A stretch of DNA of 43,282 nt from Candidatus Woesearchaeota archaeon (GCA_964624735.1 CAZUXN010000002.1:1-43282), one strand, 5' to 3'; positions 13,939-19,364 are shown, counted from the first letter of the stretch. Numbers and translations are program-made. The notes: a model not told the origin generated them from the sequence alone.

Positions 13939-15978
13939 ATGGAAGAAGAAAATAAGGTGATTAATGAGGAGGTTATGGATCAAGATGAGTTTTTGATTGA
14001 GGCGAAGGATTTTTTTGAGGTTAATAAAAAGGAGATTGGGAAAGTTGCGAAGGGGGGAGAGAAGGTTGTTGAGATTGATTTTGATGTTTTGTCGGCGCAT
14101 TCACCTGGTTTGTCTGAGGTTTTGATTGATAGGCCGGAAGAGACGGTGCAGATGTTGGAGGTTGCGTTGGAGGAGTTGGAGTGGGCGCCGAATGATGCGA
14201 GGGTTCGGTTTAGTAGTATTTCGAAGGGGCAGGAACTTTATATTAGGAATATTAGGTCGAAATATTTAGGGAAGATGATTGGGATTGAGGGGATTGTGCG
14301 GAAAGCGTCGGAGGTTAGGCCGTTGGTGACAAATGCAAAATTTGAATGTCCGAGTTGTGGAACGATTATTTCGGTTTTGCAAATTGACAAAAAGTTCAAG
14401 GAGCCGACGAGGTGCTCGTGCGGACGGCGCGGTGGGTTTAAGGAGATTTCTAAGGATATGGTTGATGCGCAGGTTTTGACGATTGAGGAAGCGAGTGATA
14501 ATTTGCATGGGGGTGAACAACCGAAAAGGATGACGATTTTTTTGAAAGAGGATTTGGTTGATCCGAATATGGAAATGAGGACGACGCCGGGTTCGAGGGT
14601 TAAGATTATTGGGATTTTGAAAGAGATTGCTTTGTCTTCGTCTTCTGGTGCGATTTTGACGCGGTTTGATTTAGCGATTGAAGCAAATAATATTATTCCG
14701 TTGGAAGAAAGTTATGAGAATATTGATATTGACGAGGAGGACGAGAGGACGATTCATGAGTTGGCAGCGAGTCCTGATTTGATGAGGAAAATGATTGATA
14801 GTATTGCGCCGTCGATTTGGGGACATCGTGATGTGAAGGCGGCTTTGGCTTTTCAGTTGTTTGGTGGGGTGAAAAAAACGAGGAGTGATGGGACGAAAAT
14901 GAGGGGCGATATTCACGTTTTGTTGGTTGGGGACCCAGGGGTTGCGAAATCTGTGATGTTGGGATTTATTGCCGGGGTTGCGCCGAAAGCTCGGTATGTT
15001 TCTGGGAAGTCTTCGACCGGGGTTGGATTGACTGCGACTGTTGTTAAGGATGATTTACTGAGGGGTTGGAGTTTGGAAGCGGGAGCGATGGTTTTGGCGA
15101 ATAAGGGGATTGTTTGTATTGATGAGTTTGATAAGATGAACGAAGAGGACCGGTCGACGATGCATGAGGCGATGGAGCAACAGACGGTGACGATTTCGAA
15201 GGCGACGGTTCAGGCGACGTTGCGTTCGCAGACTTCAGTTTTGGCGGCGGCGAATCCAAAGTTTGGGCGGTTTGACCCGTTACAGTCAATTCCGAAACAG
15301 GTTAATTTGGCGCCGTCTTTGCTTTCGAGATTTGATGCGATTTTTATTATGAGGGATATTCCGAGCCGAAAGGATGACGAGGCGATTGCGACGCATGTTT
15401 TGTTGGAGCATAAGCAGGAAGCGAAGCACGATGTGATTGACAATGATTTGTTGAGGAAATATATTTCTTATGCGAGGCAAAAGTACGACCCGGTTTTGAC
15501 TGACGAGGCGGTTAAAGCAATGAAAGATTTTTATGTTGGGTTGAGAAATATGCCGCAGATTGGGGATGGGCCATCGAAACCGATTCCTATTGGGGCTCGG
15601 CAACTGGAGGCGATGGTACGGTTAGCGGAGGCGCATGCTCGGATGAGGTTAAGTAAGAAAGTTGAGGTTAGGGATGCGATTGAGGCGATTGATTTGGTTA
15701 AGAGTTATTTGATGCAGGTTGGGTATGATAAGGATACGAAAACTTTTGATGTTGATAGGATTACCGGGACTTCGGCGTCGTCGCGGAACAAGATTCATGT
15801 TGTGCAGGAGACAATTGAGAATTTGGAGAATAAGATGGGGAAGTTGATTCCGTTTGAGGAAATTACAAAGGCGTTGGCCGGGAAGATGAGCGAGACTGAT
15901 GTTGATGAAGTTGTTGGGAAGCTTTTGAAGAGTGGGGATTTATTTAGGCCGAGGCGAGGGTTTGTTCAACGGATGTAG
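13939..15978 (+). CDS. mcm: MCM replicative helicase
   Basis: Zn finger CPSCG..CSCG, Walker A GDPGVAKS, Walker B CIDEFDKM, arginine finger SRFD, C-terminal wHTH. 679 aa. Confidence 0.95.
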   Translation: MEEENKVINEEVMDQDEFLIEAKDFFEVNKKEIGKVAKGGEKVVEIDFDVLSAHSPGLSEVLIDRPEETVQMLEVALEELEWAPNDARVRFSSISKGQELYIRNIRSKYLGKMIGIEGIVRKASEVRPLVTNAKFECPSCGTIISVLQIDKKFKEPTRCSCGRRGGFKEISKDMVDAQVLTIEEASDNLHGGEQPKRMTIFLKEDLVDPNMEMRTTPGSRVKIIGILKEIALSSSSGAILTRFDLAIEANNIIPLEESYENIDIDEEDERTIHELAASPDLMRKMIDSIAPSIWGHRDVKAALAFQLFGGVKKTRSDGTKMRGDIHVLLVGDPGVAKSVMLGFIAGVAPKARYVSGKSSTGVGLTATVVKDDLLRGWSLEAGAMVLANKGIVCIDEFDKMNEEDRSTMHEAMEQQTVTISKATVQATLRSQTSVLAAANPKFGRFDPLQSIPKQVNLAPSLLSRFDAIFIMRDIPSRKDDEAIATHVLLEHKQEAKHDVIDNDLLRKYISYARQKYDPVLTDEAVKAMKDFYVGLRNMPQIGDGPSKPIPIGARQLEAMVRLAEAHARMRLSKKVEVRDAIEAIDLVKSYLMQVGYDKDTKTFDVDRITGTSASSRNKIHVVQETIENLENKMGKLIPFEEITKALAGKMSETDVDEVVGKLLKSGDLFRPRRGFVQRM

Positions 15979-16174
15979 CTTGTTGAACGGGGGTTGACAG
16001 CTTTTCTGTCAGTAGTTGCTTCTGAAGTCACGGTGGTTGTCAGCTTTGCCGATGGGGATTGTTTTATTCCACGAAATAATGATTGGTTTTGCTATGATCG
16101 GCTGTTAATAACTTAATATTGTATTAATTTTATAGTAGCGAAAGACTTATAAATAATTGCGTTTATTATTTAGT

Positions 16175-16447
16175 ATGAGTAAAATATTAAAAGATTTGAA
16201 AGTTAAGAGATTGAAAGGATTAATTGGTATTTTAAATAATGGGAATAAAGTCTCTTTGAATCTGTTACCTTCTGTCAGAACTGCTAAATATTGCAGAGAA
16301 TTTGATAATAAAAAAAATTTTATAAATATTGCAGCAGCAAATGAAGATGGAAATTCTTATCTTTATTTTAAAGATAGTTTTGTAGTAACTGATGGCATTT
16401 CTCTTTTTGCGAACATTTTTTATATTGAATATACCGGTAAAAAATAA
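16175..16447 (+). CDS. Hypothetical small protein (orphan)
   Basis: 90 aa from MSKILKDL. AT-rich, no motif recognised. TATA-like CTTATAAATAA ~25 nt upstream. Confidence 0.4.
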   Translation: MSKILKDLKVKRLKGLIGILNNGNKVSLNLLPSVRTAKYCREFDNKKNFINIAAANEDGNSYLYFKDSFVVTDGISLFANIFYIEYTGKK

Positions 16448-16475
16448 ACTTTTATCTTGTTAATCTCATAAATTT

Positions 16476-16820
16476 TTATTTGTATCCAAATTTGTTGTCG
16501 TAAGTTGGGTGATTAATTATATCGAGGACGAAAGCGATTATTTCGATTTCTTCGTTGTTTGTTAGTGTGTAGAGCATTCGCCAGAATATTGGGAGTTCAA
16601 CTCTAAATAAATTATTCGTTCCGTATTTTATTTTGTATTCTTCGGGAATTAGATTTTTTGCGATTGGATTTCCATAATGAATATTTGATTTGATTAGTTC
16701 GATTTTGTTATTAATTGCTTTTAGAATCATTCTTGATTGTTTGTTTGATTCTGATTCGGAATTTAATTTCCTGTAAACTTCTTCTGCTTCGGGAGATAAA
16801 ATAATTCTTACTGGTTTCAT
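16476..16820 (-). CDS. RelE/ParE-superfamily-like toxin
   Basis: 114 aa. ..GNPIAKNLIPEEYKIKYGTNNLFRVELPIFWRMLYTL..EIIAFVLDIINHPTYDNKFGY resembles archaeal RelE-type toxins. 4-nt overlap with the upstream partner. Confidence 0.55.
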   Translation of the reverse strand: MKPVRIILSPEAEEVYRKLNSESESNKQSRMILKAINNKIELIKSNIHYGNPIAKNLIPEEYKIKYGTNNLFRVELPIFWRMLYTLTNNEEIEIIAFVLDIINHPTYDNKFGYK

Positions 16821-18565: not shown

Positions 18566-18575
18566 ATTAAAAATG

Positions 18576-18601
18576 CTCATCCCTTGCAAAGCAAGGATGA
18601 G
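18576..18601 (-). promoter_or_regulatory. Stable hairpin 11 nt upstream of the second NYN gene start
   Basis: Minus strand CTCATCCTTGC-TTT-GCAAGGGATGAG (11 bp, one bulged G). Confidence 0.5.
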
Positions 18602-18704
18602 CGTATATGTTTATGTTAGATGTGTTTGGTTTAAATAGGTTTTGGTGTTGTTTGTCTAACTCAATCTCATAAATTCTTATAAACCCTGTGATTCATTTCA
18701 TCTG

Positions 18705-19364
18705 ATGGAAAATGCGGTGTCGGTTGGGACGGAGGTTCGAAAGAGGAATGTTGCGTTTAAGTTGCGGATTGGGGATATTTTGAAAGGGCGACCTATGATT
18801 AGCGAGGGGAAATTTTTGTTTTTAGAGATTGAGCGGGGGACCCCGTTGGATAGTAAACATCAAACGGGGCAAAGGGTTGTGAGGGTTAATGTTATTGCGA
18901 ATTGTGTTGACAAGTTTGTACAAGAGGGGGAGAGGAAATACGCAACGTTGACGGTTGATGATGCGTCGGGGCAGTTTAAGTTGAAGGCGTTTGGAGAGGA
19001 TGTCGAGATGTTTCGGGATATTGTGCAGGGGGATACGTTGCAGATTGTTGGGAATGTTCGGGAGTGGAATGGGGAGTTGTATGTGATTGCTGAGATTGTG
19101 AAGAAAGTTGATGCGCGATGGTTGTTGGTTCGGAAGTTGGAAATTCAGAATGCTAGAAAGGATGTGCCTGTCGAAAGTTTGGGGTTAAAGAGTAGTATTA
19201 TGGATAAGATTAAAGCGGCTGAGGCTGATGGCGGGATTGATGTTGATTCGATTATTATGGATATTGAGGCGAGTCCGGATGCGATTAATGTTGAAGTTAA
19301 GAAGTTGCTTGAAGAAGGTTTGGTTTATGAGCCCAGGCCGGGGCGCTTAAGATATCTCGGGTGA
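18705..19364 (+). CDS. RPA32/Stn1-like OB-fold ssDNA-binding protein with C-terminal winged helix
   Basis: OB-fold-like core VRVNVIANCVDKF..ATLTVDDASGQFKLKAFGED..LQIVGNVREWNGELYVIAEIV. C-terminal VEVKKLLEEGLVYEPRPGRLRYL is wHTH-like. Confidence 0.55.
   Translation: MENAVSVGTEVRKRNVAFKLRIGDILKGRPMISEGKFLFLEIERGTPLDSKHQTGQRVVRVNVIANCVDKFVQEGERKYATLTVDDASGQFKLKAFGEDVEMFRDIVQGDTLQIVGNVREWNGELYVIAEIVKKVDARWLLVRKLEIQNARKDVPVESLGLKSSIMDKIKAAEADGGIDVDSIIMDIEASPDAINVEVKKLLEEGLVYEPRPGRLRYLG

Follow-up and report, generated by a model that had tools for sequence, protein, structure and literature searches.

Stacked accessory cassettes and ghost copies of the mcm–RPA32 junction in a DPANN archaeon

How can accessory genes be added to a tiny genome in which neighbouring genes share or overlap their signals? 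The question is raised by a stretch of 43,282 nucleotides from Candidatus Woesearchaeota archaeon (GCA_964624735.1, CAZUXN010000002.1:1-43282), a DPANN archaeon of the Pace-/Woesearchaeota group; this whole 43-kb stretch is called the window below. Between mcm, the left core gene of the locus (13939–15978, plus strand; 679 aa; Pfam MCM, MCM_OB, MCM_lid and MCM_WH_arc), and an RPA32-like gene, hereafter RPA (18705–19364, plus strand; an OB-fold by Pfam, matching RPA32 of P. abyssi, PDB 9f26_C, with E 5.7e-10), lies an accessory island (15979–18660). A sequence-only reading had proposed that this island is made of repeated copies of the junction formed by the mcm 3' end, the RPA promoter and the RPA 5' end, which separate distinct cassettes, and the repeat alignments given below bear this out. 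We observe directly the repeats, an insertion hotspot, empty and alternative alleles in relatives, colinearity of the ghost junctions with working ones, variable end-points, a switch of parental type in the promoter core, and recurrence of the architecture elsewhere. The window proteins were mapped onto 128 related loci (designated by L and a number), about 1.3 Mb of relatives were scanned for similar repeats, and Pfam, NCBIfam, PADLOC and Rfam were used for annotation.

Junction copies within the island

The functional RPA promoter starts at 18661 on the plus strand, with its core at 18662–18683 and the end of its TATA box 21 nt upstream of the RPA ATG. This 22-nt core, CAATCTCATAAATTYTTATAAA, occurs exactly at 17161–17182, 17888–17909 and 18662–18683, at no other site in the window and in none of 100 dinucleotide shuffles. 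A partial core, AATCTCATAAATTTTTAT, is present at 16462–16479 and matches the version of ghost 2 (see below) exactly over 18 nt. The three motif sites and the partial copy noticed beforehand were thus recovered as exact matches. Gapped self-comparison extended the repeats beyond the core: 17887–18013 aligned with 18661–18787 at 82% over 127 nt (E 2.7e-29), and 17136–17234 aligned with each of the two other promoter copies at 73–75%.

Three partial copies, termed ghosts 0, 1 and 2, precede the true junction on the plus strand. Ghost 0 (16461–16479) is a promoter core truncated inside the TATA box, and it overlaps the stop codon of a ParE-like gene. Ghost 1 (17159–17226) comprises a core identical at 22/22 positions (17161–17182), the spacer, an ATG at 17204 and about 6–7 RPA codons (MVEDAT); its N-terminus matches the RPA of L010 and L022, and we refer to it as an L010/L022-type allele. 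Ghost 2 (17887–18013) comprises the core, the spacer, an ATG at 17931 and RPA codons 1–28 followed by a stop codon, yielding a 29-aa open reading frame (ORF). The suggestion that the RPA 5' end follows the motif therefore held at 17931, where the copy runs to 18013, but only about 19–25 nt of coding sequence are kept at 17204. No two ghosts share an end-point: one stops inside the TATA box (16479), one at about +20 of RPA (joint J1, below) and one at +83 of RPA (18013).

Three N-terminal types were distinguished, each of which is also found in a real RPA gene: MENAV in the true RPA of the window and in L082, ME(D/E)SAP in ghost 2 and L006, and MVEDA in ghost 1, L010 and L022. In codons 12–28, ghost 2 and the true RPA differ by synonymous changes only. 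Ghost 2 is 90% identical to the copies in L006, and within L006 the ghost and the true copy agree at 123/127 positions (97%). Between lineages, the RPA32 start is hypervariable over roughly its first 10 codons and over the 21-nt spacer from TATA to ATG (window 18705–18740), and at least four allele types occur; the promoter core and codons 12–28 are nearly invariant across relatives. The core is equally invariant at the empty sites of relatives, because it is the RPA promoter.

The mcm 3' end is repeated as well. The source copy within the functional mcm (15804–15941, plus strand) aligned with a ghost at 17227–17362 (plus strand) at 90.6% over 138 nt (E 1e-46), including a 93-nt block at 96%. 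A recurrence of the last ~135 nt of mcm had been placed near 17230–17364; the repeat is real, but it is not the gene's terminus, as the ghost spans nt -175 to -38 relative to the mcm end and lacks the final 12 codons and the stop. This pseudogene fragment carries a 1-nt deletion, and its substitutions are spread evenly over codon positions; the even substitutions and the frameshift indicate neutral decay. At joint J1 (17222–17232, plus strand) the RPA 5' end of ghost 1 is fused in frame to the mcm-3' ghost, connecting RPA codons 7–9 to mcm without any cargo. The switch point is a 7-nt sequence, CAGGAGA, common to the parental RPA (L010-type, ACAGGAGAT) and mcm (GCAGGAGAC). The order RPA-5' then mcm-3' at 17204–17362 is the signature of a tandem-duplication or unequal-crossover joint, and microhomology at a cargo-free joint is typical of what microhomology-mediated unequal recombination would leave.

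Fragments of the mcm 3' end were also seen in relatives, with short duplicates in L042 and L008. The empty allele of L008 retains a 33-nt mcm 3'-end ghost (ttgaagagtggggattt/gtgcagaaggtttaa; 9912–9942) between a hairpin array and the RPA promoter, so that the array itself seems to have been inserted with duplication of the junction. Between mcm and RPA, L032 (9387–9914; identical in L052) has a 175-aa gene whose product terminates in an MCM winged-helix domain (PF21120, E 1.5e-5) and matches MCM residues 610–679 at 41%; L061 has a homologue of its N-terminal part (see also L049, 1064–1255). Apparently, an ancient duplicate of the mcm-3' junction has here become a gene of its own.

The cassettes and their alleles in relatives

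The order TruB-MCM-RPA32-HTH-p216 (HTH, helix-turn-helix) is kept among relatives, which allowed the intergenic gaps to be compared. The MCM-RPA gap has a median of 593 nt (37 nt to 2.9 kb) and exceeds 300 nt in 37/61 cases and 1 kb in 18/61. The corresponding values are a median of 93 nt, 15/67 and 3/67 for the TruB-MCM gap, and 58 nt, 3/41 and 3/41 for the HTH-p216 gap. Throughout this DPANN family, the mcm|RPA32 junction is a hotspot of insertion. In compact genomes (L015, L062 and L064 among others), mcm has its stop codon immediately before, or overlapping, a motif found across the family, ACTCAAYCYCAWTAATYCTTATAAA, whose TATA box ends ~21 nt before the RPA ATG, a layout that fits a promoter with a transcription factor B recognition element (BRE) and TATA box of a leaderless mRNA. 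Since the mcm stop abuts the RPA promoter in these genomes, the ancestral junction had no neutral spacer.

The island differs between relatives both in whether it is present and in what it carries. Empty, ParE-only (L082), RelE-only (L140) and RelE-ghost-NYN (L006) alleles were found, as the proposal of presence/absence and alternative-cassette variation had anticipated. In L007, L008 and L050, whose MCM is 92–94% identical to that of the window, the gap is 197 nt and has no cassette. These three loci, L010 and L082 have a single promoter/RPA-5' copy and a single mcm 3' end. L082 (MCM 94%) carries a ParE-like pair, and window 16474–17234 is colinear at 87% with L082 13378–14137, which leads into the functional RPA; ghost 1 was therefore once the functional junction of an L082-like allele. 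Ghost 0 is not present in L082, homology with which begins at 16474. L140 has a complete mcm, a 320-nt spacer, a RelE pair and the real RPA promoter, without ghosts, and is 82% colinear with window 17374–17909; the promoter of ghost 2 therefore once drove RPA in a RelE-only allele. The border of the RelE cassette is identical in the window and L140. The cassette is more similar between the two (82%) than are the flanking mcm (74%) and RPA (75%), which suggests that it spread laterally between lineages at the same junction. L006 (RPA 82%) has RelE, antitoxin, ghost 2, NYN and RPA in common with the window; the NYN insertion is therefore older than the split between the two. In a sliding comparison, the window was L006-like (89% falling to 75%) up to the core and L082-like (90–93%) from the core to codon 11. 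This switch of parental type at 18661–18683 places a recombination breakpoint in the promoter core.

The first module of the island (module 0; 15979–16460, plus strand) is strain-specific. It consists of a degenerate post-mcm hairpin array (~15979–16060) and an orphan ORF (16157–16447, 96 aa) without Pfam, NCBIfam or PADLOC match, and it has no nucleotide homologue at the locus of any relative, only the same-strain contig L004 matching it. Cassette 1 (16476–17086, minus strand) encodes a ParE-like toxin (16476–16820) and an 89-aa partner (16817–17086) with a 4-nt overlap. The toxin match (ParE_toxin, E 3.8e-4) is under the Pfam curated cutoff, so the pair is toxin–antitoxin (TA)-like only; it is 90% conserved in L082, where it lies directly upstream of the real RPA. 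Cassette 2 (17367–17886, minus strand) comprises a ParE/RelE toxin (17367–17618; ParE_toxin, E 1.7e-7, above cutoff; 162 homologues), a DUF7557-like 72-aa antitoxin 1 nt upstream (17620–17838) and its own promoter region. With its small toxin and adjoining small partner, it is predicted to be a type II TA system of the ParE/RelE superfamily. Cassette 3 (18017–18660, minus strand) is an NYN unit with an ORF at 18017–18565, a 5'-leader hairpin at 18575–18602 and a TATA-like box at 18628–18639. The ORF matches Pfam NYN (PF01936) over its full length (E 4.5e-24) and PADLOC HEC-09 (E 7.6e-25), its role in defence being putative. The gene content read from the sequence, an orphan ORF with a TA-like pair, a RelE pair and an NYN gene, agrees with Pfam, the first pair weakly.

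Several properties are common to these cassettes. They are antisense to the repeated RPA promoter, cassettes 2 and 3 have their own TATA-like boxes (17862–17869 and 18628–18639), and the border of each cassette lies 0–8 nt from the point at which its last gene stops (16476, 17367, 18017 and, at another locus described below, 29527). The promoters of ghosts 1 and 2 both face the 3' ends of minus-strand cassette genes. The modules measure 0.5–1.2 kb and contain only TA, NYN and orphan ORFs by Pfam, NCBIfam and PADLOC; with PADLOC, the TA-like genes were unmatched and NYN/HEC-09 was the only match. The NYN protein (NYN190) has 438 homologues at 70–88% identity in unrelated neighbourhoods, and its orthologues elsewhere retain the same promoter and covarying 5'-leader hairpin; it is therefore a self-contained unit that moves. 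The leader reads CATATACGC, a 12-bp hairpin, CATTTTT and ATG (window 18575–18602, minus strand; L136 and L137, ~7960–7990), and its stem covaries between genomes (CTCATCCTTGC/GCAAGGGATGAG versus CCTATCCTTGC/GTAAGGGGTAGG). It may be an autoregulatory element for the nuclease.

Hairpin arrays lie directly 3' of the mcm stop in genomes with an opened junction: L008 (9804–9886), L082 (12035–12139), L054 (12081–12141), L010 (9265–9385), L012 (4700–4950), L018 (5190–5360) and also L007. Each consists of 3–5 short tandem hairpins with a 5–7 bp stem, a C-UUU/UUC-G loop and GGATGG-like spacers. The stems vary between units and genomes yet remain complementary, and, of four distinct arrays found in the 1.3 Mb of relatives, three adjoin the mcm end. 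The post-mcm segment of the window, where the array is degenerate, folded no better than shuffles (z -0.35), and the hairpins and segments of the island matched no Rfam family at gathering or E<=1 thresholds.

Other variation was seen around the same core genes. At the mcm|RPA hotspot, L054 (12216–13247) encodes a methyl-dependent restriction enzyme of the DpnI family (PF06044, E 2e-66); by eye, the adjoining ORF resembles a fragment of a Dam-type methyltransferase. In L006 (1929–2244), ~315 nt separate RPA from eRF1; the genes for HTH, p216, glycosyltransferase and ScpB (3.5 kb in the window) are missing. The mcm gene itself has a 1.3-kb in-frame insertion at residue 416/417 in L012 (2573–3898), L016, L022, L030, L033, L042, L086-L091 and L095; the L012 insertion is an intein that includes a LAGLIDADG endonuclease (Pfam Intein_splicing, LAGLIDADG_3), and the window mcm is without it. 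The plus-strand GC skew is extreme (+0.4 to +0.84) over TruB, mcm and RPA (window 12000–19400) and does not turn negative where genes lie on the minus strand. Plus-strand TruB, mcm and RPA have a GC content of 46%, versus 32–36% in the island and the adjacent minus-strand core genes. As these core genes are likewise low, we rejected low GC as proof of foreign origin.

The same architecture at other junctions

Insertions framed by partial copies of a neighbouring gene were found at other junctions of the window. At TruB (12177–13080, plus strand), a TruB-5' ghost (12177–12229 and 12288–12304; 53 nt at 85% and a further 17 nt identical) runs over the stop codon of the preceding gene and is followed by an NYN paralogue (12447–13007; PF01936, E 1.2e-23) and the true TruB start (13004); relatives have no NYN gene at this position. 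The TruB-5' ghost is broken by a 57-nt insert (12230–12287) with a hairpin (ctcttcg...cgaagag), in place of 7 nt of the true sequence. At topA (29385–30152, plus strand), a 44-codon topA-5' ghost (29385–29519) is followed by a DUF2283/DUF4258 pair (29527–29942, minus strand) and the true topA start (30022; Pfam DUF2283, DUF4258 and Topoisom_bac). The topA ghost is 92.7% identical to the true copy over 124 nt (E 1e-46), with 9/11 differences at third codon positions. Among relatives this site is covered only by L041 and L068, and the gap is 115 nt in L041.

Comparable repeats occur in relatives. A 122-nt repeat (94%) of the RPA promoter and 5' end surrounds a ParE/MazE pair in L034, where the ghost has frame-breaking indels; a 109-nt repeat (96%) of the 3' end of the HTH gene surrounds HicAB in L082; repeats of 45 and 61 nt surround NYN genes in L077 and L136; the eRF1 3' end is repeated around a radical-SAM gene in L068; a 52-nt repeat (100%) of the TruB 3' end surrounds 1.6 kb in L054; L028 has a similar repeat with a PD-(D/E)XK gene; and RPA promoter duplicates surround plus-strand cargo in L019 and L085. 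The repeat identities form a continuum from 100% to ~70%, and the cargo is mostly TA pairs and NYN genes. No common motif links the duplications found at topA, at TruB and at the 3' ends of the HTH and eRF1 genes.

Two further repeat pairs of the window were examined as candidates and rejected. The 64-nt pair at 24371–24434 and 24685–24748 (86%) flanks an Rfam RT-16 RNA match (24434–24569, minus strand; 83.8 bits). One copy is the 3' end of a 235-aa gene (24628–25335) that is 62% identical to its orthologues, versus 84–94% for neighbouring genes, and 7/13 mismatches are at adenines of the other copy. The pair resembles a decayed template/variable-region pair of a diversity-generating retroelement; no reverse transcriptase gene was found, and the 122-aa ORF at 24065–24433 has no Pfam match. 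The 42419/42719 repeat is an internal domain repeat of a subtilisin-like ORF (41180–43282, plus strand) that leaves the window. Downstream of RPA in L039 (11650–15468), a 49-nt direct repeat (94%) surrounds a 3.7-kb insert with an N6/N4 DNA methylase, an unassigned 339-aa gene and an IS1/IS240-like DDE transposase; it is of restriction-modification (RM) type and, unlike the others, has a mobility gene. An Rfam match to a 126-nt tRNA (2487–2612, plus strand; 51.3 bits), presumably intron-containing, was also recorded in the window, in which ARAGORN detected no tRNA.

Origin and meaning of the stacked cassettes

We consider that the island is best explained by a stack of insertions that were recombinase-free and made with long target duplication, the alleles having then been shuffled among each other through homologous and illegitimate recombination, and we give this explanation a probability of roughly 0.6. 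At an ancestral junction without spacer, DNA could be added only by duplicating part of the junction, and the duplication would let mcm keep its 3' end and RPA its promoter and start. Duplication would be favoured because, where genes abut or overlap, only junction-duplicating events leave both essential neighbours intact. The island (15979–18660) would then be the record of at least 3–4 duplicative, recombinase-independent events, in which each cassette (the ParE-like pair, the RelE pair and the NYN unit) was a compact, self-promoted selfish unit and each ghost a past working junction of an allele that persists as a singleton in relatives. The alleles would have been joined by illegitimate microhomology-mediated recombination and reshuffled by homologous recombination, with the promoter core as crossover point. 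The NYN insertion, common to L006, would be older and J1 the most recent event. The enzymes would probably be the host's RadA and Mre11-Rad50 with end-joining, not a dedicated recombinase (RadA/B, Rad50 and Mre11 are encoded in the window), and the intermediates may have been circles, sister chromosomes or incoming linear DNA. Some copy pairs (RPA with ghost 2, and topA) appear to have diverged while both were under protein-level selection, because their differences are mostly synonymous or at third positions.

The closest precedent is insertion with long target duplication (ILTD), described for RM systems (Nobusato et al. 2000 Gene 259:99; Furuta, Abe & Kobayashi 2010, PMC2853133). In ILTD, long variable direct repeats of tens to hundreds of bp, often over a start or stop codon, flank inserts without mobility genes, by a mechanism stated to be unknown (PMC2853133). 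ILTD is recognised by direct repeats >30 bp, a single-copy empty site in a relative and an insert <20 kb without mobility gene. Here, the repeats measure 127 nt (ghost 2/true copy), 138 nt (mcm-3'), 124 nt (topA) and 53+17 nt (TruB), single-copy empty sites are found in L007/L008/L050, L010, L082 and the compact L015, L062 and L064, and the modules of 0.5–1.2 kb have no mobility gene. Both cases thus combine small selfish units, long variable target duplication, lack of transposase and integrase, an empty site in a relative and an intact target gene. A target-cargo-target topology is seen for NYN (ghost 2-NYN-true copy), topA, TruB, L034 and the HicAB of L082. The locus departs from known ILTD in that it belongs to a DPANN archaeon, carries type II TA pairs and single NYN genes, and has accumulated several events at a single junction, with at least one joint, J1, being a heteroallelic duplication joint and not of target-cargo-target form. 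ILTD has been described in bacteria and for RM genes only; the 2010 survey had no archaeal case (PMC2853133), a 2013 review still gives ILTD for RM systems only (PMC3874152), and our literature search returned nothing specific on this phenomenon in DPANN or for TA genes. What is new is the domain of life, the cargo classes and the stacking at one junction.

Some observations weigh against this explanation. Unit 2 is not a plain target-cargo-target arrangement, as the RelE pair lies inside the second junction copy, and its mcm ghost is short of 37 nt, which calls for additional deletions. At topA and RPA, ghost and true copies differ mostly by synonymous changes, as would be expected equally of donor copies and of in-situ duplication followed by allelic replacement of the working copy. 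The ghost cores may have been retained as functional elements, for example to drive transcription antisense to the toxin and NYN genes, and not be passive scars. A recombinase acting in trans could lie outside the 43-kb window. Finally, contigs that break at repeats carry no information, and excision, circles and population polymorphism are hypothetical, the analysis having covered assembled contigs.

An unlikely alternative is that in-situ tandem duplications came first and served as landing pads with spare promoters, into which cassettes were later inserted, the ghosts being kept as useful promoters. This would account for the cargo-free joint J1, for ghost cores that are intact while their flanks differ, for the identities of ghost 2 (90% between the window and L006, 97% to the true copy inside L006) and for the orientation of both ghost promoters towards the 3' ends of minus-strand cassette genes. 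However, ghosts 1 and 2 are colinear with cassette-bearing functional junctions (L082 and L140), not with empty pads, the L034 ghost has frame-breaking indels, and three N-terminal allele types are incompatible with a single in-situ duplication. Repeated tandem duplication alone, one of the two routes named by the sequence-only reading, is likewise insufficient, as the copies are colinear with different natural alleles (L082-like and L140/L006-like). The other route, Campbell-type integration of circles, may still have contributed, but the repeat-bounded Logan contigs are the de Bruijn result of any 40-nt exact repeat. Contig ends were accordingly rejected as a sign of circles: L131 (15838–17289) is bounded by such a repeat at k=31, and the same is expected for a linear tandem arrangement.

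A bolder and unlikely extension of the stacked-insertion explanation is that the TA pairs and promoter-hairpin-NYN units are themselves autonomous, recombinase-free mobile elements of DPANN archaea. Through ParE-type DNA damage or NYN cleavage, the toxin or nuclease would make breaks, repair would copy the cassette into zero-spacer junctions with long target duplication, and the repeats would permit loop-out of circles and re-integration at the core in other lineages.

Site-specific integration, in which the 22-nt core would be an att site used by a tyrosine or serine integrase encoded elsewhere, or by elements now gone, and the ghosts would be attL/attR scars of elements accreted in tandem, appears improbable. 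The core is exact or near-exact in all copies, the parental switch falls precisely at the core, tandem elements parted by partial target copies typify integrase-driven accretion, and integrases that target and restore a gene 5' end are known (dusA, PMC4482086). Against this, no integrase or transposase was found in ORFs >=90 aa of the window and no recombinase domain in any window ORF, in agreement with the initial impression, nor was an integrase present in ~40 distinct gap alleles of relatives. The repeats reach far beyond the core and stop variably (TATA box, ~+20, +83), which counts against a site-specific recombinase because such an enzyme would cut at one position. The duplications at the other junctions (topA, TruB and the 3' ends of the HTH gene and eRF1) lack a common motif, and the core is as invariant at empty sites as a promoter predicts. 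The core was also absent from 2.9 million IMG/VR contigs, searched for an element-borne attP. The identical att core at a fixed position that marks integrase islands is not seen here, the mcm ghost having no core at all. The locus does resemble tRNA and dusA accretion (PMC4482086) in its accessory segments parted by partial target copies and in the surrogate copy that restores the target end, and the 5'-end targeting of dusA islands (PMC4482086) recalls the RPA-5' case, but it has no integrase, no fixed crossover position and no att core common to different loci.

The comparison of the island to an integron array could not be upheld. Integrons (IntI, attI, attC) are likewise compact one-way arrays of small TA-rich cassettes beside a conserved site, and archaeal integrons have reportedly been found in metagenome-assembled genomes. 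Here, however, there is no IntI-type recombinase, no fixed recombination point and no promoterless cassettes under a common promoter (Pc); the cassettes are self-promoted and antisense, and the separators derive from host coding sequence. An inverted-repeat search of 15300–19500 found no attC-like hairpin at the cassette borders, and Rfam gave no match.

Still less probable is that the island is the decayed remnant of an integrated plasmid or virus, of which only addictive TA modules and nearby fragments are left. TA modules typically survive the decay of an element, the mcm-3' fragment could have been element-borne, mcm being found in some archaeal elements, and the island has a GC content of 32% against 46% for mcm and RPA. 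However, the cassette borders lie 0–8 nt from stop codons and are the same in L082, L140 and L006, no larger element, replication gene or integrase is found at the site in any relative, the mcm ghost is nearest to the host's own mcm (90.6%), and neighbouring core minus-strand genes are also GC-poor (HTH gene, 36%).

That the island is an assembly artefact, a collapsed or chimeric join of strain variants, is hardly credible: short-read contigs of several samples do terminate within the repeats, but the layout is present in independent contigs of at least five samples. The contigs from JGI (3300031553, 3300031654, 3300031643 and 3300031624) and Logan (SRR9707989 and SRR9705735) overlap one another and are 99.9–100% identical to the window over the island, which is therefore no chimera. 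A single contig (L002/L129) covers ghost 1, the RelE pair, ghost 2, NYN and RPA; L004, a same-strain contig, reaches from mcm to ghost 1 and has 378 nt in common with L002; Logan unitigs match 15838–17289 at 100% identity. The ghost-2 arrangement is also present in the diverged relative L006, from a different study.

Two further systems help to define what sets the locus apart. Like core-gene-flanked hotspots and replacement flexible genomic islands, it has alternative cargo between the same core genes, a patchy distribution, a cassette more similar than its flanks (L140) and a breakpoint in a conserved flank; ordinary hotspots, however, swap cargo, whereas here alleles were added in tandem and left junction ghosts. 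Exchange of a hotspot by recombination in its flanks therefore explains the spread of cassettes, not their tandem addition. The S. aureus lpl cluster is reported to have a duplicated and recombined unit of 3' ORF, intergenic region and 5' ORF (PMC2568036), as here, but the lpl genes are tandem paralogues, whereas foreign cassettes lie here between two unrelated essential genes.

In practical terms, such repeats break short-read assemblies of these genomes exactly at replication genes. The locus also offers a graded natural series, with repeats from 100% to ~70% identity and empty, singleton and stacked alleles, from which the mechanism could be derived. Junction ghosts would be evolutionary raw material: the mcm-3' duplicate of L032/L052 now appears as a gene, and other ghosts have intact promoters that face toxin genes. 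With the stacked insertions, a still unexplained mode of mobility, insertion with long target duplication, would be known from archaea as well, and for TA and NYN cargo. If the cassettes are indeed autonomous, they would be a functional analogue of the integron that runs on host recombination alone. Since junction duplication leaves both neighbours intact, it would give ultra-compact DPANN genomes a way to gain accessory and selfish genes without dedicated integration machinery.

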